Shown piece by piece: positions 52,714 to 63,412 of a stretch of 64,000 nt of DNA; positions within the stretch are counted from its first letter, which is position 1, and every line of letters starts with the position of its first letter. The notes under the pieces were generated by a model that was not told the DNA's origin, did not search any database, and saw nothing but the letters and a program-made list of their open reading frames with translations. The translations under genes and the position numbers were made by a program. Source of the stretch: Candidatus Saccharimonadota bacterium (GTDB taxonomy: Bacteria; Patescibacteriota; Saccharimonadia; Saccharimonadales; JAICHO01); contig JAICHO010000001.1 of assembly GCA_025924835.1 (NCBI GenBank), positions 2,553-66,552 on the forward strand. The letters are read 5' to 3'.

Positions 52714-53229
52714 ATGTTCGGTCACGACGACGATAATCAACAGCAGCCAACGCAAGATACTAATACGCTCATGCAGGCGGCCATGCCTGAACCTCTCGGT
52801 GACGACCGCCCTGCGTCAGCCCCTATGCCAGACAACATCGGTGTAGGCGCAATGGGTGCACCATCTATGTCCCCTGCGTCAGCCCCGCATATCGTGACAT
52901 CCAACTTTTCAGCCGTTGGTACCGATACCACACCACCGGCCGTACCAGCTTCGACGCCATCACCCGATCCGGCTGGTGGCGGCAGCGACGATCTGCTTAA
53001 TCTCAAGCAGCAAGCCCTGCAACACCTCAGCCCACTAGTAAGTCAGCTCGATCAAACCCCAGAAGAAAAATTCCGCACCACAATGATGATGATTCAAGCC
53101 AGTGACGATCGCACCCTTATCAAAACCGCTTTTGAGGCCGCCCAGGCCATCAAAGACGACAAAGCTCGCGCCCAGGCTCTACTAGACATTATCAACGAGA
53201 TTAATTACTTTACCCAGCACCAGGCTTAA
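52714..53229 (+). CDS. hypothetical protein, low-complexity N-terminus and helical C-terminus
   Basis: ORF only. Confidence 0.45.
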   Translation: MFGHDDDNQQQPTQDTNTLMQAAMPEPLGDDRPASAPMPDNIGVGAMGAPSMSPASAPHIVTSNFSAVGTDTTPPAVPASTPSPDPAGGGSDDLLNLKQQALQHLSPLVSQLDQTPEEKFRTTMMMIQASDDRTLIKTAFEAAQAIKDDKARAQALLDIINEINYFTQHQA

Positions 53230-53268: not shown

Positions 53269-53784
53269 CTATTGTTCTGATGGGCCCAACAGATATCGGT
53301 GAACAACATATGCAAACACCGATATAGCCAAGAAAATAGCTATCGTATCCCCAGGCCCAGTATTTGGTAGGCCATTTTGATTATTCTGTGGTGGCGTAGT
53401 GGTAGTAGGTGCCGGGGTAGTAGCGGCCGGAGCCGGGGTAGGCGTGGTAGGAGCATTCACATTGCCATTGCTCGGAGCGGTTCCGGTGGTGGGGTTGCTG
53501 GCCGCTGGTTTATTAGCAGTATCATCTTTCTTGGGTGCTGGTGATTCGCTTGGCTGGGTGGTCGCAACTGGGCTACCCGAATCCGAACTAGGGCGAAGCT
53601 TGCGATACACCCAACGACCGCCAAAAAATAAGCCCATAACCACCAGGGCAGTAACGGCTAGGCTAAGCAAGGCTAGCAGCCATGCCATCCAGGCACGGTC
53701 GCGCTTTTCAGCCTGATAATAACTGGTTACTTCTTCCGGCACGCTGGCCGAATCGTCTGACTTATTACGGCGAAATAATGCCAT
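53269..53784 (-). CDS. LPXTG cell-wall-anchored Thr/Pro-rich surface protein
   Basis: C-terminal sorting signal: LPNTG, hydrophobic segment IAIFLAISVFAYVV, then HRY. N-terminal signal-anchor after about 30 residues. Confidence 0.7.
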   Translation of the reverse strand: MALFRRNKSDDSASVPEEVTSYYQAEKRDRAWMAWLLALLSLAVTALVVMGLFFGGRWVYRKLRPSSDSGSPVATTQPSESPAPKKDDTANKPAASNPTTGTAPSNGNVNAPTTPTPAPAATTPAPTTTTPPQNNQNGLPNTGPGDTIAIFLAISVFAYVVHRYLLGPSEQ

Positions 53785-55818: not shown

Positions 55819-56085
55819 TTACTTAACCGTCGCGAAGATATTTTCTGCCTTAATCAGAATGTATTCCGAGCCGCCGTATTTGACGACTTCGTTACTGTAG
55901 CCACCGTAAATAATCCGGTCGCCGACCTTAACATCGTCAACTTTCTTACCGACGGCCAGAACTTTAGCCACTTTGGGCTTTTCCTGAGCGTTACCCGGCA
56001 AGTACAAGCCGCTGGCGGTTTTGGTTTCGGCCTCTTCCTGCTGGGCGACTACATAGTCTGCCAATGGATTAATAGGTACAGACAT
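55819..56085 (-). CDS. groES: co-chaperonin GroES
   Basis: 88 aa with a typical GroES mobile loop and beta-barrel sequence. Confidence 0.95.
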   Translation of the reverse strand: MSVPINPLADYVVAQQEEAETKTASGLYLPGNAQEKPKVAKVLAVGKKVDDVKVGDRIIYGGYSNEVVKYGGSEYILIKAENIFATVK

Positions 56086-56117: not shown

Positions 56118-56158
56118 TTAGCACACAACAAAAGTGAGTGCTAACCGCTAGCACTCAC
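56118..56158. promoter_or_regulatory. CIRCE (HrcA operator) TTAGCACAC-N9-GAGTGCTAA plus an extra inverted half-site (ccgc-TAGCACTCAC)
   Basis: Read directly; one mismatch to the consensus TTAGCACTC-N9-GAGTGCTAA. Upstream of groES. Confidence 0.8.
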
Positions 56159-56186
56159 TATACCCGACTGCCAACACCCCTGTCAA
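56157..56186 (-). promoter_or_regulatory. sigma70 promoter TTGACA-N18-TATAGT driving groES-groEL, with the -10 abutting the CIRCE
   Basis: rc(56181-56186)=TTGACA and rc(56157-56162)=TATAGT. Confidence 0.5.
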
Positions 56187-56264: not shown

Positions 56265-57557
56265 CTACTTTTGCCCCAAGCTACGTTCGGCAACACGACC
56301 CAACCATAAGGCAGTATCAATATCAGCAGCCCGGGAAGGTAAGTTACTGCCCTTAATTTCGTTTATGACCTTTTCTTTCAGCTTCTTTTTGTATAAGCGG
56401 TTAGGCGTGTCGCCATGCGCCAGTCGTAGCTGTACGGTTTCCTCCTCCCCGGCAGCGTCATTATCACTATCAACTTCTAAAATAACATAAGGATCCAAGG
56501 ACTCAGGATCCCGTTTAGCCGGTGGAATTTTACGCTTATCCCAATCTTCAAATACGGCAAAATAGATATCATCTTGTAATTTGCATACCGCTTCGGCCAG
56601 CTGTTGGCGTTCAGAAATCGATAAATCATCAGCATAATTGGCAGCGGCCAATAAATAATGGTTCATAAACAGGTCCCGAAACACCTCGTGTCTCTGCTGC
56701 CCGTTTGGGCTCTTCCCTTTGCTAACGGTAAAAAGCCCACGATTTTCCTCAAGCGATTTGTATAAGCTCGTAATGTCGGCGCCGGCCTTATTTTTAAAGC
56801 TGGCTAGCCAGTTATTAGTATCAGGAACCGTTTCGGCGCTTTCAAAATCAATAAAATGCGTTGCCCTATCTATGGTCCGTACAATGTTCCGAGTTTTAGC
56901 ATCACCATGGAAGGTGCGCCCTTTAATGTGTAGCTCCGCGAGTGCATCCGCCATATCTTCTAGTCGATCTTCCATAAAGTAGCGCTCAGGCTCACTGCTC
57001 TGCATATACGCCCAGTTTTCGTTATCTAGCGTGGAAACTGTGTCTTCGTACAAAGTTACAAGATACTCAGCGCTATCCGTAATCAGGATTCCGGCCGGCA
57101 TAAAGACGGCAAAGCCCTTTTCTGATAGCGACTTTAGCTGCACATATTCGTGAAACGCTTTCTGATGGCCTTTTTCAAACCTTTTAACAGCTACCGGCTG
57201 AGTGGCCATCTCCTGGGTCGAGGGATCTAGATAGGATATATCACCAAAGAACACCTGGTGGGCAGAACGCCTTGCGTTAAAACCTCGTGCACGCTGAAGC
57301 TCAAACTCAAACCTGGGAGGAAGCTCTCCTTCATTATGCAAAACATCAAAAGCCTTTTGATCTAAATGTAGTCCTGGCTGTGTCAGTCGAGGTGTTCTGC
57401 TAGCTACAAAGTCTTGCGGGATTTCAGGCAGGACAAATACAGGGCTGCCCGGGTAACCCGATTGCTCAACTGCCGCTACAAATTCTTTGACGTGTAGCGG
57501 CAAAGGCGCTGGCGCCTCTACATCTGTGATTAATGGTAATAATTCAACTGTAGTCAT
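56265..57557 (-). CDS. atypical protein-kinase-like fold phosphotransferase (RIO/Kdo/APH-like), paralog A
   Basis: VAVKRFEK (beta3 Lys), HEY (alphaC Glu), catalytic loop HGDAKTRN and IDFE (DFG-like Asp); 430 aa. Confidence 0.6.
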   Translation of the reverse strand: MTTVELLPLITDVEAPAPLPLHVKEFVAAVEQSGYPGSPVFVLPEIPQDFVASRTPRLTQPGLHLDQKAFDVLHNEGELPPRFEFELQRARGFNARRSAHQVFFGDISYLDPSTQEMATQPVAVKRFEKGHQKAFHEYVQLKSLSEKGFAVFMPAGILITDSAEYLVTLYEDTVSTLDNENWAYMQSSEPERYFMEDRLEDMADALAELHIKGRTFHGDAKTRNIVRTIDRATHFIDFESAETVPDTNNWLASFKNKAGADITSLYKSLEENRGLFTVSKGKSPNGQQRHEVFRDLFMNHYLLAAANYADDLSISERQQLAEAVCKLQDDIYFAVFEDWDKRKIPPAKRDPESLDPYVILEVDSDNDAAGEEETVQLRLAHGDTPNRLYKKKLKEKVINEIKGSNLPSRAADIDTALWLGRVAERSLGQK

Positions 57558-57584
57558 GATGATTTTTATTTTTATCGGAAGTTT

Positions 57585-58223
57585 TTAGCCTAACAAAGCT
57601 CTCCTTATCTTGGATACATTGCCGGGTGAAGCATTAGCTTCCCCTTCCTGAACTAGGCTAATAAGCGCGGCTTCTAGCGAACCCGGGGAAGCGGTTAAGG
57701 GGGGGATCAGTAAAACCTCGCCGCCGTTAGCCTTACTAAAAGCAAGCTTGAACCAGGTCAAGCTTTCGGGCACCGCGCCAGTTTCCCGAGCAAGACGAGC
57801 GAGTAATTCACGTGTTTTTAGTAAAACCTCTGGCAACTCCATACTTATGGGGCTTGCGGACTGTGATGGCTGCTCGGACAATAAGATCCTAGATAAAGGC
57901 CGGGCACTGCTTGGCACAGCGTATTGCGTAACTTCTTCATCTGCCCATAATCGCCTCATGTGCGGCACACCAGCGGACTCCATTAGGCTGTACATTGCAT
58001 CATCCGCTCCCGTTCGTTCACAAAACAAGCTTCGTTGGCGGCCCTGTACAACATCCACAATTTCTATGCAGCCATTTGATGGACATAAATTAAAAGTCGG
58101 ATCAGTTTCTATAAATCCACTTGCCATTAAGCGTTCGCGAATAGGCCCCAAGGCAAAATCAACGGGCTCGCCAGCTGGGGCACTATTATGTTTTGGGGAT
58201 TGATGTGTTGGTATCTGAGACAT
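57585..58223 (-). CDS. hypothetical protein (212 aa)
   Basis: ORF between the two kinase paralogs; no motif recognised. Confidence 0.5.
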   Translation of the reverse strand: MSQIPTHQSPKHNSAPAGEPVDFALGPIRERLMASGFIETDPTFNLCPSNGCIEIVDVVQGRQRSLFCERTGADDAMYSLMESAGVPHMRRLWADEEVTQYAVPSSARPLSRILLSEQPSQSASPISMELPEVLLKTRELLARLARETGAVPESLTWFKLAFSKANGGEVLLIPPLTASPGSLEAALISLVQEGEANASPGNVSKIRRALLG

Positions 58224-58281
58224 GTTAGTAAAACTATAGCATAAAACTCATTACTTTACAACAGGGCCTGCGCTCTGAGCT

Positions 58282-59301
58282 CTAGCTGCCTCCAAAGTTT
58301 TCAAGGTCAAAGTTTATGCCTTCCTGAAGAATGTCAAAATCTATCAGGTGTTTCCATCCCACATCGGTCGCAGGGTGCCTCAAAACCATGCGGTAAACTC
58401 CGAGTAAGTGCTCATCATAAAAAGCCTGCTTTTCCGCTAACGTATTCTCGGCTAATACCCCACGCTCGGACAATGAGCCGAGTAGCAGCAATAAGTCCCT
58501 AAGAACTACCTCGTGTAGCCGTACGCTATCTTCCTCGCTCAACCCGCCGTCAGGTTGCACCGTAAAGGTATTGGCGGAAAAGGTCTCCAGATCTACGAGG
58601 CGCAGGCCTGACTGGTCCCATGCCATGTTTCTAAGGCGGGCATCGCCATGTGATGGAACCACAACATCATCTTCTTGAGGATTACGGACGGGGGTAGAAT
58701 GCAACAAGCCTAGCGTTAAAGCGCACTTTTCTATGATTGCTGTCAGCATATCAGGATCGTCTTGCGTATCCAGTAAGGTGCCCCATTCAAAATTGTCAAA
58801 ACTACGCACCTGCGGTTCAAAGTCCGTAATGAGTGCCGGGTTTTTGCCGACCATTGCTAGACCGACTGGATTAAAGGTGCGAATTAAATCGGCCTGCCTC
58901 ACCAGGCGAGTTGCTGCGTATTCATGCATAGCCGCTTCCAGGTCACCCTCAAAAATTTTAACAGCGACTGGCCGGCTGATGTCTCCGTCGGGACCTTCAA
59001 AATTCATATGCCCAAAGCGCACGTCATGAGCCGAGGCTTCTCTTCCCTCGCGCCAGCTTGGTTCTTCGGTAAATGCAAAACGACTAGGCCCGGCGTGCTC
59101 TGCTCTAGACCCCAGTTCGACGGCTTTGTCGGCTGCAAGCACTAGGCCATTGTAGGCAGCCCGGCCAAGGCTCTCTGCCAAACCGCCAATAACCACCTTG
59201 CCATTTACCACTTCAGCCTGGTTTAAGGGCAAAGCAGCGGGCAAAATATCGCCCTCGAAGTGAAAGGCCGGGAATGATTCGTGTAGGTGAGTTGTTGCCA
59301 T
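58282..59301 (-). CDS. atypical protein-kinase-like fold phosphotransferase, paralog B
   Basis: VAVKIFEG...HEY...SHGDARLRN...VDLE, colinear with paralog A; 339 aa. Confidence 0.6.
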   Translation of the reverse strand: MATTHLHESFPAFHFEGDILPAALPLNQAEVVNGKVVIGGLAESLGRAAYNGLVLAADKAVELGSRAEHAGPSRFAFTEEPSWREGREASAHDVRFGHMNFEGPDGDISRPVAVKIFEGDLEAAMHEYAATRLVRQADLIRTFNPVGLAMVGKNPALITDFEPQVRSFDNFEWGTLLDTQDDPDMLTAIIEKCALTLGLLHSTPVRNPQEDDVVVPSHGDARLRNMAWDQSGLRLVDLETFSANTFTVQPDGGLSEEDSVRLHEVVLRDLLLLLGSLSERGVLAENTLAEKQAFYDEHLLGVYRMVLRHPATDVGWKHLIDFDILQEGINFDLENFGGS

Positions 59302-59419
59302 GGTTTTATTTTGTCTGTTCCATTAAGGAAATAACTTATAAAACAGAGTATACCATAAATGTTACTCTAAGTAAATATGTAGTCGGTGGCGATTGCGGTT
59401 TTGAGATATACTCTACTTA

Positions 59420-59608
59420 ATGATGACTGACCCGAATGAATCAACACTATCTGTATCGCCTGAAGACCAAGATCTTGATGTGCAGGCTGTATCGCTCGTG
59501 ACCCGTGGTTTTGCAACGGCCTTTCGGAATAGTGGGGTTGCTATTGAAGTGGTAGAAGACGGCGCTGAGATTACCTTTCCAGAGGCAGAGGCTCCAGCGC
59601 TTGATTAA
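59420..59608 (+). CDS. small acidic hypothetical protein (62 aa), divergent from kinase paralog B
   Basis: ORF only (Asp/Glu-rich). Could be spurious. Confidence 0.3.
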   Translation: MMTDPNESTLSVSPEDQDLDVQAVSLVTRGFATAFRNSGVAIEVVEDGAEITFPEAEAPALD

Positions 59609-59619
59609 TTAAAGATAGG

Positions 59620-60954
59620 TCAAACTGCGATTAAAGCGTCCGTAAACTCTTCATCAAACACCTTGAGTAGTACGCGTTGGGCGCGTCGTAAGGCTCCTTG
59701 ACTGGCTGGTAGTTTTCGGTTTTGGTAGGCAGCCAGCAAGTCATCGGCCGCTTGAGCCATTTTATCGGTACTACATCGCTTGAAGTACAGCACAGGAATG
59801 CCACCGTAATCTTCTTCTCCGACCCTATTTCGTCTACTTGCTTTGGCCCCATGAGCAGCCTTTTTGGCGTTATCCCCCTCTTCCTCTTCGCGGCTTAACA
59901 GTTTGAGCTGTATAGGCGTCGTATGAACAAAATTGCCGTCGGTATCACGCCTTTGCACAATCAAATCAAATGATCGATAAGGTCGGAGCTTCAGGGTATT
60001 CGGTTCATCCTCGTGCTTAAAGGCCCGACGCAGACCATAATCAATCGCAGCGCCTGGTTCAGAATGTACATACATTAACCCCCTGGTTACAATGGCTGCA
60101 AAGCTTTCCAGCATAAAACCCGCCCAGTCCGCACCTTCATCCCCTCCGGTTAGAGCGTCGCGTGCGTCTGCTAACTTCACTTGCCTGCCTATTTCTTGCA
60201 GGTCAACTAGTTGCTCTTCCAACAGTTCAATGGCAAGCTCCTGCAAAGACTGCAGCCACTCATTATCGCCCGCCAGCTTGGCAGCCCTCAGGTCCTGATC
60301 AAGCCACTCAAAGCGAATATCGGCCCGATACTGGCTAGCCAGCAACCTATCTGTCCATTCGGCAGTTGTATCATCGTATAAACGGTCATATGCCAAGACA
60401 GCCGTTACAAACAGAGTCTCTCGGGCGCTTGGCTCTTGCTCTACCCAGGCAGCCTTATGAATGAGCTGACCAGCCAGCAAAAGATCTTTGGTGGGTTTTT
60501 GCAATTCCCAGCTATTCTTCCCCACCAGGGTCATGAATTGTTCAGATACATGCTCTGAATCGGAACCTGTCATAATAAAGTCTTCTGGATCCCCCGAGTA
60601 ATTGGCGTAGAGCAATAGCCCGGCTGCCCGCAGCAAATCAGGCTGTCCTTCATGATATGCGTTAAAACTGCCTATCGCTTGGTCCCAGGCGGCAACAGCA
60701 TTACTTATCGTCGCTTCTTGCGGCTTACCAGTGCGCATATCGGGCATTAATTCAAAATCGGGTAACTGCCCGTCGCATACAACTCGGGCAGTAAGAGCAC
60801 CCACATAACTGCCTAACCGGCATGTTTTTAGAACATCGTCTAGATTGACAAAGTTACTAGCCTCTCTGAATTCGCTCCAGTAGTCACCATAAGGACCCGA
60901 TTGGGCGGATGGAACCTCAAAAGTGTTAGGAATTGGCTGTTTTACCTGAAGCAT
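59620..60954 (-). CDS. hypothetical protein (444 aa)
   Basis: Long ORF with no recognisable domain. Confidence 0.55.
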   Translation of the reverse strand: MLQVKQPIPNTFEVPSAQSGPYGDYWSEFREASNFVNLDDVLKTCRLGSYVGALTARVVCDGQLPDFELMPDMRTGKPQEATISNAVAAWDQAIGSFNAYHEGQPDLLRAAGLLLYANYSGDPEDFIMTGSDSEHVSEQFMTLVGKNSWELQKPTKDLLLAGQLIHKAAWVEQEPSARETLFVTAVLAYDRLYDDTTAEWTDRLLASQYRADIRFEWLDQDLRAAKLAGDNEWLQSLQELAIELLEEQLVDLQEIGRQVKLADARDALTGGDEGADWAGFMLESFAAIVTRGLMYVHSEPGAAIDYGLRRAFKHEDEPNTLKLRPYRSFDLIVQRRDTDGNFVHTTPIQLKLLSREEEEGDNAKKAAHGAKASRRNRVGEEDYGGIPVLYFKRCSTDKMAQAADDLLAAYQNRKLPASQGALRRAQRVLLKVFDEEFTDALIAV

Positions 60955-61044: not shown

Positions 61045-62322
61045 TTACGCCTTGGCAAGCAGCTGCCGGGCAATTTCGCGCTCATCCCAAGGGATGTTTT
61101 TGCCGCCCATGTTGCGGAAATCCTCATGGCCCATACCGGCCAATATTACAACATCACCTTTTTTGGCTTCTTTAAAAGCAGTCTGTATGGCCTTGTACCG
61201 GTCGGCAATAACTTTTGTTTTGGGCTCACCGCCAGCCTGTACAATCCCCTGGTATACGGCCTGTCGGATTGCATCCGGATCCTCGTTGTAGGTTTCGTCA
61301 TCCGTTAAATAGATGCTGTCGGCATACTTGGCGGCAAGCTGGCCCATAATCGGCCGTTTTGCCTTGTCACGGTCACCGGTAGCGCCAAAAACAATGCTAA
61401 CTCGCCCCTTGTGCTTCCCAGCTTGCAGAACCTTCTGCAAAGCATCGGGCGTGACGGCAAAGTCAACCCAGACTGTGAAATTCTGGCCTTGATCAATGTT
61501 TTCCATACGGCCCGGGACTAGCTCCAGAGTGCCTATCCCTTCCGTGATCGCATTGTCGTTCAAGCCCAAGATTATCCCCACGGCCGCTGCGGCAGTAGCG
61601 TTATATACGTTAAACAGGGCCGAGAGTTTAGTATGTAGAGAGATAGCCCGGCTCTGATAAGCCAGCTGCCACTGACTACCCTGCCCTTCCTGAATCACTT
61701 TTTCTATGCGTACCGTACTGTCAGATATCTGTCCATACGTTGCTATCTGCCCGACAGATTGCTGCTGAAAATAATCATACCAGTCATCGTCACGGTTCAG
61801 AATACAGTGCTTAGGCTTAAGATAGCCGTTGAATAAGCGCGCTTTGGCTTCAGCGTACCGCTCCATAGTTTTGTGGTAATCCAGATGGTCCTGGGTCAAA
61901 TTGGTCATGACCGCCACCTCAATCGGGATACCAACAAGCTTGTGCTGGTGCAAGGCCATACTAGTGACCTCTAGCACCACAAAGTCCACTCCTTGCTCTT
62001 TAGCAGATTTTAAGAATTCAAGTAGTTTGCCGGTTAATGCTACTGAACGGTGCGTCTTGTTCGGCTCTGGCTTGCCATTCATTTCTATAACGGCCGTCGT
62101 ATACATAGCAGTTTTGTACCCTGCAGCCTTAAGCACCTCGTTTATGTAGCAACAGGTCGTGGTCTTGCCGTTCGTCCCCGTTATGGCAATGATCCTGAGA
62201 CCTTTTGCCGGGAAACCATAACGGGCCTGCAGTGTGTACACCCGGCTTTTACGGTACGTTTCTTCTGCCAGTTTAATTCCCTGCTTTGGCAAGATTTTCC
62301 GGACCAACTTCTTTGGATTCAT
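61045..62322 (-). CDS. murE: Mur ligase family protein, MurE-like (UDP-MurNAc-tripeptide synthetase) with a short N-terminal domain
   Basis: P-loop GTNGKTTT about 50 aa from the start, middle-domain DHLDYH, MurE-type C-terminus GATGDRDKAKRP...DDETYNEDP. AGGAGG SD 5 nt before the ATG at 62322. Confidence 0.8.
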   Translation of the reverse strand: MNPKKLVRKILPKQGIKLAEETYRKSRVYTLQARYGFPAKGLRIIAITGTNGKTTTCCYINEVLKAAGYKTAMYTTAVIEMNGKPEPNKTHRSVALTGKLLEFLKSAKEQGVDFVVLEVTSMALHQHKLVGIPIEVAVMTNLTQDHLDYHKTMERYAEAKARLFNGYLKPKHCILNRDDDWYDYFQQQSVGQIATYGQISDSTVRIEKVIQEGQGSQWQLAYQSRAISLHTKLSALFNVYNATAAAAVGIILGLNDNAITEGIGTLELVPGRMENIDQGQNFTVWVDFAVTPDALQKVLQAGKHKGRVSIVFGATGDRDKAKRPIMGQLAAKYADSIYLTDDETYNEDPDAIRQAVYQGIVQAGGEPKTKVIADRYKAIQTAFKEAKKGDVVILAGMGHEDFRNMGGKNIPWDEREIARQLLAKA

Positions 62323-62344
62323 ACCTCCTAGTATACTGGTTCTA

Positions 62345-63412
62345 ATGCGGATCCTTGGAATAGAAACTAGCTGCGACGAAACTGCCTGCGGCATCGTAGA
62401 AGACGGCAAACGATTGCTGTCTAATGTTGTCTTGTCCAGTATGGACCTGCACGCCGCCTATGGTGGTGTCGTACCAGAAATTGCCGCCCGCAGCCATATT
62501 GAGGCAATTATCCCTGTTATTAGACAATCCTTGCAGCAAGCTCAGTGTACGTGGGATGACATTGATGGTATTGCCGTTACCTATGGGGCCGGCCTAGGCG
62601 GTTCCTTGCTGGTAGGCGTCATGACTGCCCGGACCCTGGCAATTACCAAAAATAAGCCGCTGTATGCCATTAACCACGTGGAGGCACACATTTACGCCAA
62701 CTTCCTCACCGACGCGGCACCTTCCTTGCAAGATTATGTACTCCCCAAACATCAGCCGGAGTTTCCAATGCTAGGGCTTATCGTATCTGGCGGCCATAGT
62801 CAGCTGGTACTGTGGCGTGGTCATTTTGATTACACCTTACTTGGCCAAACTCAAGATGACGCTATCGGCGAGGCCTTTGACAAGGTAGCTAAGGTTTTGG
62901 GCCTGCCCTACCCTGGCGGTCCCAATATTGAACGGGCTGCCGAGCACGGTGACCCTTATGCGTTTAACTTCCCCAAAGCCAAAATGCCTAACAAATATGA
63001 TTATAGCTTCTCTGGGCCCAAAACAGCCGTCCTGCGCGCTGCACAGCAGCAGATTGGTGAATCACACGACTTTCCTAGCCATAAGCTGTCACAGCGACTG
63101 TCTGAAGCCCAGAAGGCCAACATTGCTGCCAGCTTTCAGCGCATAGCTGTTGAGACCGTTGTCGACAAGACCATAATGGCATATGAGGAAGGTAAACCAC
63201 TGAGCGTGGTGATCGGCGGCGGCGTCGCCAGCAGCCCGGAGTTACGACGACAGCTAGCTCAGCGCTTGCCTATAGAGATTGCATATACTGACAGAAAGCT
63301 CTGTACCGATAACGGTGCCATGATAGCTACACTAGGCTGCTTCCATATGCTGCACAACCAGCCGGTTGCCGACCCCTATAAATTAGCCATCTCCCCTAAT
63401 CTGTCCATGTAG
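62345..63412 (+). CDS. tsaD: tRNA N6-adenosine threonylcarbamoyltransferase TsaD (Kae1/YgjD)
   Basis: MRILGIETSCDETA...HVEAH metal-binding motifs. Start at 62345, not the ORF-track 62234. Confidence 0.92.
   Translation: MRILGIETSCDETACGIVEDGKRLLSNVVLSSMDLHAAYGGVVPEIAARSHIEAIIPVIRQSLQQAQCTWDDIDGIAVTYGAGLGGSLLVGVMTARTLAITKNKPLYAINHVEAHIYANFLTDAAPSLQDYVLPKHQPEFPMLGLIVSGGHSQLVLWRGHFDYTLLGQTQDDAIGEAFDKVAKVLGLPYPGGPNIERAAEHGDPYAFNFPKAKMPNKYDYSFSGPKTAVLRAAQQQIGESHDFPSHKLSQRLSEAQKANIAASFQRIAVETVVDKTIMAYEEGKPLSVVIGGGVASSPELRRQLAQRLPIEIAYTDRKLCTDNGAMIATLGCFHMLHNQPVADPYKLAISPNLSM

Follow-up and report, generated by a model that had tools for sequence, protein, structure and literature searches.

Part of the class Saccharimonadia (Patescibacteria/CPR) carries a conserved unit of two genes, one for a protein-kinase-like enzyme, called K here, and one for a short protein, Y, predicted to adopt a kinase fold devoid of catalytic residues. 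The pair was found in the window (the whole 64,000-nucleotide stretch of DNA analysed) and in L001, L002, L003, L004, L005, L011, L012, L013, L014 and L016, and in 11 out of these 11 loci Y is positioned immediately upstream of a member of the K family, usually between murE and groES. The gaps between the two genes range from -17 to +40 nt (nine loci measured), and in L003 they are found together although both murE and groES are absent. No Y-K fusion was encountered among the top 150 members of the kinase family (lengths 192-432 aa). Because the two genes are closely spaced or overlap, and are probably coupled in translation, we infer a partnership of approximately 1:1, and the best model, which we regard as on balance probable, is a pseudokinase-kinase complex acting on some substrate. 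K (in the window, K1) would be an active ATP-dependent phosphotransferase, and Y its non-catalytic partner, serving as an allosteric activator, a scaffold or a substrate adaptor.

In the window, the pair belongs to a run of five genes flanked by groES (55819-56085, minus strand) on the side of K1 and by murE (61045-62409, minus strand) on the side of X. All four large ORFs claimed in an earlier note on this DNA are present, at exactly 56265-57557 (K1, 430 aa, an atypical protein-kinase-like enzyme), 57585-58223 (Y, 212 aa), 58282-59301 (K2, 339 aa, a paralog of K1) and 59620-60954 (X, 444 aa, an ORF of unknown function). They all lie on the minus strand, so the cluster is co-oriented as proposed, with the exception of the fifth gene, S (59420-59608), a 62-aa ORF with a predicted pI of 4.05, which is on the plus strand and convergent with X. 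The description of the locus as lineage-specific applies to X, S and K2, but not to Y-K1, as the kinase family comprises at least 523 cluster representatives at E<=1e-10 (912 at E<=1e-3 and 87 at E<=1e-30). With a GC content of 0.486, against 0.485 for the window, the locus does not look recently imported. Each of the five proteins is acidic and soluble, and neither a signal peptide nor a transmembrane segment was found in any of them, which suggests that they are located in the cytoplasm; secretion or direct interaction with a host, one of the functions considered earlier, is therefore not indicated. Scans of the locus for promoters and terminators revealed no enrichment over shuffled sequences.

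K1 and K2 are paralogs beyond any reasonable effect of chance (BLASTP E-value 5e-13, 27% identity over 157 aa). The motifs quoted in the earlier note were all located in both proteins: VAVK with the β3 Lys (residues 122-125 in K1, 112-115 in K2), HEY with the αC Glu (136-138 and 126-128), the catalytic loop (HGDAKTRN at 217-224 and HGDARLRN at 218-225) and, at the position of DFG, IDFE in K1 and VDLE in K2 (236-239). In K1 these catalytic core motifs, together with the Gly-loop SAHQVFFG, map to positions 56838..57266 (minus strand), and the key residues are Lys125 (β3), Glu137 (αC), Asp219, the basic Arg223, Asn224 and the metal-binding Asp237. The motif coordinates and the composition of the corresponding columns in 78 sequences confirm that the full set of catalytic residues (β3 Lys, αC acidic residue, H-x-D...N loop and metal-binding Asp) is retained: K125, E/D137, N224 and D237 are conserved in 78/78 family members, H217 in 76/78 and D219 in 77/78, and a basic residue four positions after the catalytic Asp (D+4; K/R223) is again present in 78/78. 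This supports the prediction that K1 and K2 are protein-kinase-like enzymes with the appearance of active ones.

K1 consists of an N-terminal extension (residues 1-97) and a minimal kinase core (~98-330), followed by a C-terminal tail (~340-430) that varies and is shared by close relatives only. The core would be of the minimal Bud32/Kdo-kinase-like type, with a nucleotide loop of the form SxHxVFFG (the atypical Gly-loop reads SAHQVFFG in K1 and SAHDVRFG in K2) and a catalytic loop of the form HGDxxx[K/R]N. An additional N-terminal domain of about 120 aa that differs between the paralogs had been proposed; the extension indeed exists, but it covers only ~97 aa (K1) and ~89 aa (K2) ahead of the P-loop equivalent, and its second half is homologous between K1 and K2 and conserved across the kinase family. 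Homologs of K1 exhibit 43-63% identity. K2 has an ortholog in L002 (62% identity) and is missing from L001/L015, L005, L013 and L016; it is a lineage-specific duplicate of the kinase gene, which probably shares Y with K1.

Comparison with family models (Pfam, NCBIfam, PADLOC, PHROGs) yielded only sub-threshold kinase matches for K1 and K2, and the profile searches proposed in the earlier note accordingly placed neither protein in any curated family. With the gene order conserved in related genomes as well, the outcome that the note had named as speaking against its reading did not occur. The nearest kin are nonetheless the small atypical kinases anticipated there. Among the 78 family members the commonest NCBIfam match is arch_bud32 (66/78, best E-value 2.3e-9), with Kdo kinase matched by 49/78 and, weakly, MADS6 kinase by 6/78, and the commonest Pfam match at E<=1e-3 is Kdo/WaaP (27/78), with APH matched by 10/78. 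The kinase of L005 exceeds the Pfam Kdo threshold (28.5 vs 21.3 bits), while K1 and K2 have no match to this model (PF06293, gathering threshold 21.3 bits) at E<=1 and remain under the gathering threshold of APH (PF01636, 23.2 bits) with 14.9 and 17.7 bits, respectively. By these profile scores the Kdo/WaaP family is related, but K1 and K2 themselves are not recognised members of it. The profile of the K family also matched solved structures of protein kinases (E-value 5.8e-5 with 10 sequences, 1.1e-8 with 78 sequences), and these matches span the region from the Gly-loop to DFG. We found no paper dealing with these kinases in either Saccharibacteria or Patescibacteria; the family appears to be uncharacterised, but it belongs to a known enzyme superfamily. 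Weak matches to LanKC/LxmK would suggest a RiPP/lanthipeptide context, which was rejected because the matches lie in the generic kinase core, S contains no Cys and no cyclase or lyase is encoded nearby.

The Kdo/WaaP and APH matches also allow K1 and K2 to be read as small-molecule kinases of the KdkA/WaaP or APH/choline-kinase style, which would act on sugars of the envelope, on lipid-linked precursors or on compounds resembling antibiotics, with Y, a degenerate paralog, in a structural role. We regard this as rather unlikely. The D-x-E sequence that replaces DFG in the K family fits it, as D-[FWL]-E at this position is typical of small-molecule kinases, and so do the neighbouring murE and a DDAH-like gene located upstream in several loci. 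However, the scores of K1 and K2 are far under the family thresholds, the solved structures matched by the family profile are protein kinases (best E-value 1e-8), and the fully conserved basic residue at D+4 corresponds to the Arg that tyrosine kinases carry in HRDLAARN, a residue to our knowledge absent from KdkA, APH, RIO and Bud32. Moreover, as far as we know, Saccharibacteria have no LPS. For the pseudokinase-kinase complex we slightly favour a cytoplasmic protein over a small molecule as the putative substrate, although the best Pfam match (Kdo/WaaP, a family of sugar kinases) and the D-[FWL]-E motif tell against a protein.

The frequent arch_bud32 matches, together with tsaD located one gene away and divergent from murE (in the window, L001, L004, L007, L008, L013 and L016), raise the question whether Y and/or K could be the bacterial counterpart of Bud32, i.e. 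a KEOPS-like regulatory ATPase that cooperates with TsaD in the synthesis of tRNA t6A. Such a partnership, mentioned in the earlier note, has been weakened by the comparisons and we find it highly improbable: K1 reaches only 18.8 bits against the cutoff of 125 bits for Bud32 (TIGR03724) and its 78 relatives are also far below it, Y has none of the ATPase residues, transcription of tsaD points away from the locus, and in L003 the Y-K pair is away from tsaD. The proximity of tsaD and groESL is, besides, an old feature, seen in Mycobacterium tuberculosis without any kinase (PMC5335608). According to Tables S1/S2 of PMC10633639, the cultivated Southlakia epibionticum possesses the divergent tsaD/murE pair with no Y-K behind murE, and has the bacterial partners TsaB and TsaE. 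As far as these tables reveal, the Y-K module appears to be absent from Southlakia altogether, and would consequently not be essential to the lifestyle of Saccharibacteria in general.

Y had been described as an unknown protein without recognisable motifs, a description that the structure prediction supersedes. The AlphaFold model exhibits a bilobal kinase fold with a pTM of 0.70, in a calculation based on 7 sequences in which 1 of 5 models exceeded a pLDDT of 70. The residues invariant in the Y family (P27, D41, G85, P109, L110, P152, A161, L172, P174, L190 and I206) include none at catalytic positions; the equivalents of the catalytic loop and of DFG read GAVPES and LLIPPL, and all four residues that characterise an active kinase (β3 Lys, catalytic Asp, Asn and metal-binding Asp) are missing. 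On the basis of this model, we predict that Y is a catalytically dead minimal kinase fold, i.e. a pseudokinase. Profile-profile comparison, searches of the PDB with the Y profile and family searches detected no kinase signal at the sequence level, and the direct profile-profile comparison of Y with K was not significant (probability 0.2%), for which reason paralogy of Y and K cannot be called from sequence. A match of Y to IBR (E-value 0.0096) was discarded, as the underlying Cys residues are not conserved in the Y family, and PDB matches to designed PPR repeat proteins were spurious, being sums of 8-9 repeats of <5 bits each.

The remaining genes occupy a slot between murE and Y whose contents vary: it is empty in L013 and L016, contains other genes in L004, L005 and L017, and across the loci is filled with X and S, with K2, with the DDAH-like gene or with nothing. 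S is conserved in position: small ORFs like it, similar to each other, lie immediately beyond the 3' end of X in L001, L007 and L008/L010, and in L002 upstream of K2, at the end of the contig. L017 encodes at the position of S a 64-aa ORF that BLAST did not match to any member of the S family at E<=0.01. S has no family match in Pfam, NCBIfam or PHROGs. It is not a relic of the DDAH-like gene; such a relic is only a separate 57-aa ORF of L001. The metagenomic loci were retrieved with a narrow alignment as the query.

X has 8 detectable homologs and no match in Pfam, NCBIfam, PADLOC or PHROG. Its AlphaFold2 model (pLDDT 75.9, pTM 0.82) comprises a helical N-terminal domain (~21-269) and an α/β C-terminal domain (~273-411; positions 59722..60138, minus strand, delimited from DSSP of the model and from conservation), in which a helix with E283 is followed by a strand, the sequence HED (314-316), a strand starting from D330, a strand with Q349-x-K351, a helix, a strand and a helix. 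E283, E315, D316, D330 and K351 are invariant, and position 349 is Q or E. The predicted helix-strand-strand-strand-helix-strand order fits the PD-(D/E)xK nucleases, as do the invariant Glu in helix 1, the Asp at the start of strand 2 and the (Q/E)-x-K of strand 3; the C-terminal domain may be PD-(D/E)xK-like. Fold searches reported helical bundles only and no nuclease, the full profile of X found nothing in the PDB, and a match of the C-terminal profile to a repeat antifreeze protein was spurious (~5 bits per repeat).

With a nuclease-like X, all five genes could constitute one functional module, such as a signalling or defence island, with X as the effector, S as an inhibitor of X and the kinases in a regulatory role. 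This reading of the whole cluster as one unit, also advanced in the earlier note, is quite unlikely in our opinion, and only its Y-K part holds firmly (linked in 11/11 loci), since X, S and K2 sit in the variable slot. The order X-S-K2-Y-K1 recurs in part (S, K2, Y, K1 in L002; X-S in L001). K1 gave weak PADLOC matches to mad6 (E-value 1e-3) and PD-T4-6 (E-value 3e-3), and the weak MADS6 matches of six family members likewise favour this reading. On the other hand, X occurs without K2 in L001 and L005, Y-K without X in L003, L004, L013 and L016, and in L001 an unrelated 427-aa protein takes the place of K2. No anti-phage system was matched in PADLOC, where X, Y, S and K2 have no match to any defence model; the fold searches do not support a nuclease, the neighbourhood is a housekeeping one, and the GC content of the locus is that of the genome. 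We prefer to regard X-S as an unrelated pair probably inserted into the murE-Y slot.

The pseudokinase-kinase model can be extended, tentatively and with considerable doubt, to an obligate Y-K heterodimer constituting a hitherto unrecognised, Saccharimonadia-specific protein-phosphorylation system, encoded next to murE and groESL and with a tyrosine-kinase-like HGDxxx[K/R]N loop, that would regulate envelope synthesis or proteostasis and to which K2 and X-S would be lineage-specific additions. The tiny genomes of Patescibacteria encode few recognisable regulators, and a conserved pair whose kinase component is represented by hundreds of clusters, with K1 and K2 passing no curated model, would be among the few candidate signalling devices of the CPR. 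No new biochemical principle is indicated, as both fold and chemistry are familiar from the known kinase superfamily.

Among the known systems, Bud32/PRPK of KEOPS (~19 bits for K1 against the 125-bit cutoff) differs from K by the lack of the 90-100-aa N-terminal extension, of the SxHxVFFG loop and of the conserved basic residue at D+4, and the locus described here has a partner protein without catalytic residues and neither an operon nor a fusion with tsaD. KdkA/WaaP (PF06293) is separated from K1 and K2 by its threshold, and we know of no pseudokinase partner described for it. RIO and the APH/choline-kinase type likewise give K no match above threshold, and the N-terminal extension and the signature motifs of K are unlike theirs. 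The pseudokinase-kinase pairs known from other contexts, STRAD-LKB1 in eukaryotes and the bacterial MviN kinase-homology domain (PDB 3uqc), have no sequence relationship with Y-K, whose partnership is deduced from gene adjacency. We know of no minimal pseudokinase partner encoded by a gene of its own that has been described in bacteria, and the Y-K pair could show how regulation of a kinase by a dead paralog arises outside eukaryotes.

The locus under study comprises four minus-strand genes between murE (61045-62409, minus strand) and groES (55819-56085, minus strand) in our ORF list, namely X (59620-60954, 444 aa), K2 (58282-59301, 339 aa), Y (57585-58223, 212 aa) and K1 (56265-57557, 430 aa), and a small plus-strand ORF, S (59420-59608, 62 aa), convergent with X. 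K2 and Y are separated by 58 bp, Y and K1 by 27 bp, and K1 and groES by 179 bp, while in the 318 bp from X to K2 there is no minus-strand ORF of note, S lying there on the plus strand. The GC content is 0.486 for the locus vs 0.485 for the window. The complete order is tsaD (opposite strand), murE, X, S (opposite strand), K2, Y, K1, groES and groEL.

Comparison with the loci of relatives revealed that a kinase of the family of K1 and K2 (K family) is located directly downstream of Y in 11 out of 11 loci, with gaps of -17 to +40 nt in the nine loci measured. L002 has the order S (opposite strand), K2, Y, K1, groES, groEL. Y and K are followed by groES and groEL in L012, likewise in L013, where they are preceded by tsaD (opposite strand) and murE, and L016 has this tsaD-murE-Y-K order up to K. 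In L003 the pair persists away from murE and groES, between genes for a beta-propeller and an MFS protein, both on the opposite strand. The murE-Y stretch, on the other hand, is a variable slot. L007 and L008-L010 exhibit tsaD (opposite strand), murE, X and S (opposite strand). K2 was found, among the loci compared, only in the window and L002. The earlier note had considered the five genes consistent with one functional module; the invariable pairing and the variable slot uphold this view for Y and K, but not for the whole set.

In L001 and L015 the order is as in the window, except that K2 is replaced by an unrelated 427-aa protein without any family match (L001 3819-5102, plus strand), followed by a 57-aa ORF (L001 5099-5272, minus strand; present also in L015), the N-terminal relic of a DDAH/amidinotransferase-like gene, which indicates gene decay and turnover in the murE-Y slot. 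The C-terminus of the 427-aa protein in L001 contains a 'VDAVV...YQVK' stretch resembling the D...QxK region of X, without significance (E-value 0.026-0.89). The DDAH-like gene itself is found on the opposite strand directly upstream of Y-K in L011 and L014, in L005 (murE, X, DDAH-like gene, Y, K, groES, groEL) and in L004 (tsaD on the opposite strand and, further on, murE, ORFs of 177 and 113 aa, DDAH-like gene, Y, K, groES, groEL), as well as in L017 (murE, X, a 64-aa ORF on the opposite strand, DDAH-like gene). It belongs to the DDAH/arginine-deiminase superfamily (PF19420, E-value 2.8e-12; L004 8253-9140, L005 2649-3476, L017 2402-3088, all minus strand) and is a recurrent divergent neighbor of Y-K in several Saccharimonadia.

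The K family is not tiny, but fairly large, with its own signature motifs. A word-indexed search with K1 reported only 8 relatives; an exhaustive HMMER run of the family profile retrieved 912 cluster representatives with E<=1e-3 (523 with E<=1e-10, 87 with E<=1e-30), most of them 320-370 aa long. Scanning of 78 members against Pfam and NCBIfam yielded matches, with scores far under the curated cutoffs, to Kdo/WaaP (27 members), Pkinase (10) and APH (10) in Pfam, and to arch_bud32 (66, best E-value 2.3e-9), Kdo kinase (49) and LanKC (43) in NCBIfam. This pattern bears out the initial placement of the kinases near RIO, Bud32, Kdo kinase and APH. The orthologous kinase from L005 (294 aa) exceeds the Pfam Kdo threshold (28.5 vs 21.3 bits); K1 and K2 are recognized by no curated family model. 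Single-sequence searches with K1 and K2 reported only sub-threshold similarities (APH, Pkinase, Kdo kinase, Bud32, LanKC, LxmK; RNase L kinase domain, E-value 0.03). The 10-sequence family profile matched solved Ser/Thr kinases across the region of the catalytic loop and DFG (5.8e-5), and the 78-sequence profile matched protein kinases (1.1e-8) from the Gly-loop to DFG.

K1 and K2 (BLASTP 5e-13 to each other) contain all the catalytic motifs quoted at the first reading, and judging from their sequences they are active-looking paralogous atypical kinases. K125, W182, N224 and D237 (K1 numbering) are invariant in the 78 family sequences, D219 is kept in 77 and H217 in 76, and all 78 exhibit an acidic residue in helix alphaC and K or R at position D+4. 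The nucleotide loop is S-x-H-x-V-F-F-G, in place of GxGxxG. The basic D+4 residue occupies what we take to be the position of the Arg in HRDLAARN of tyrosine kinases, and to our knowledge it is not present in Bud32, RIO, KdkA or APH; it points, weakly, to a protein as the substrate. A protein is slightly favored over a small molecule as the substrate of K, and we regard a small-molecule kinase similar to KdkA, WaaP or APH, in line with the Kdo/WaaP and APH matches, as a possible but rather unlikely alternative.

Y exhibits no sequence-level match in family library searches. Its AlphaFold2 model, built from 7 sequences (pLDDT 72.8, pTM 0.70; confident in the best of five models only), reveals the kinase order of secondary structure elements, and structural comparisons scored Bud32 (12.1, 11.0, 10.7, 10.3), WaaP (10.6), LxmK (10.6), RIO (9.5-10) and APH enzymes (about 9-10). 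In the shallow alignment no Lys, His or Asn is found among the invariant columns, the sole invariant Asp (D41) precedes the first strand, and the positions of the catalytic loop and DFG are occupied by GAVPES and LLIPPL, respectively. Because the kinase-like model is thus combined with the loss of catalytic residues, Y is best described as a predicted minimal pseudokinase, the third kinase fold of the locus; the profile-profile comparison of Y with K was not significant. A sub-threshold IBR match is due to Cys47/Cys52 ('FNLCPxxGC') and Cys68; all three are found in the window, L001 and L002, the first two only in L016, and none in the orthologs from L003-L005. They could constitute a metal or disulfide site specific to the lineage, or be due to chance.

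No library yielded a family match for X. In its model (pLDDT 75.9, pTM 0.82), a helical N-domain (residues 21-269) precedes a C-domain with the order helix-strand-strand-strand-helix-strand-helix. The X family has 8 members; its invariant residues are E283 (first helix), E315/D316, D330 (where the second strand starts) and K351 (third strand), with position 349 being Q, or E in one member. X and a small ORF travel together across loci. S is acidic (pI 4.05) and has no known relatives. Its position is maintained across five to six lineages, five of which also show weak sequence conservation; the ORF in this position in L017 shows no detectable similarity to S. It is conceivable that S is an inhibitor or partner of X.

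Taken together, we lean, by a modest degree, towards a reading in which Y joins K in a pseudokinase-kinase complex, with K as the catalytic part and Y possibly serving in regulation or substrate recruitment; K2 would be a recent additional catalytic subunit, and X-S an insertion independent of Y-K. For all proteins of the locus, a soluble state and a cytoplasmic location are predicted. That the five genes form a defense or signaling island appears improbable.

On the groES side, a near-consensus sigma-70-like promoter (56157-56186, minus strand) is followed by a CIRCE operator with one mismatch, TTAGCACTC-N9-GAGTGCTAA (56118-56144), located between this promoter and groES, unique in the window and matched in 0 of 100 shuffles. 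This sequence evidence points to groESL being under heat-shock control of the HrcA type in this CPR genome, and thus groES would be a separate unit. Two 171-aa ORFs without Pfam matches lie between a PGI-like gene and groEL (52714-53229, plus strand; 53269-53784, minus strand); the product of the latter is rich in Pro, Thr and Ala, has hydrophobic stretches around residues 30-55 and close to its C-terminus, and may be located in the membrane or at the surface. Rfam reported no family at gathering score across the 64-kb window, and no tRNA, rRNA or riboswitch match. On the other side, the ORF calls of murE and tsaD (62234-63412, plus strand) overlap by 176 bp, a longest-ORF artefact; the true starts are likely MNPKK (about 62322) and MRILGIETS (about 62378), giving a divergent pair that shares about 55 bp.

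Bud32 exhibits the highest similarity to both K and Y, which leaves some room for the idea, raised as weak speculation in the earlier note, of a Bud32-like partner of the neighboring TsaD. This idea is weakened by the gene order and content around tsaD and groESL here and in two other bacteria. According to PMC10633639, which also demonstrates natural competence, the cultivated Southlakia epibionticum likewise exhibits tsaC and tsaD opposite to murE (SEML1_0047-0049, with SEML1_0048/0049 as the divergent tsaD/murE pair), with a FemAB-family gene after murE and groESL elsewhere; it possesses TsaB (SEML1_0713) and TsaE (SEML1_0714), and within the supplementary tables considered the 'Protein kinase' fold label stands on UbiB only. 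M. tuberculosis carries tsaE-tsaB-rimI-tsaD-groES-groEL1 as a single operon (PMC5335608); therefore the proximity of tsaD and groESL is old and requires no kinase. We consider such a partnership very improbable. Our literature search found no paper describing the K family. Both chemistry and fold fall within the known kinase superfamily; new is an uncharacterized family of kinases in a CPR lineage, invariably accompanied by a partner pseudokinase that is encoded by a gene of its own.
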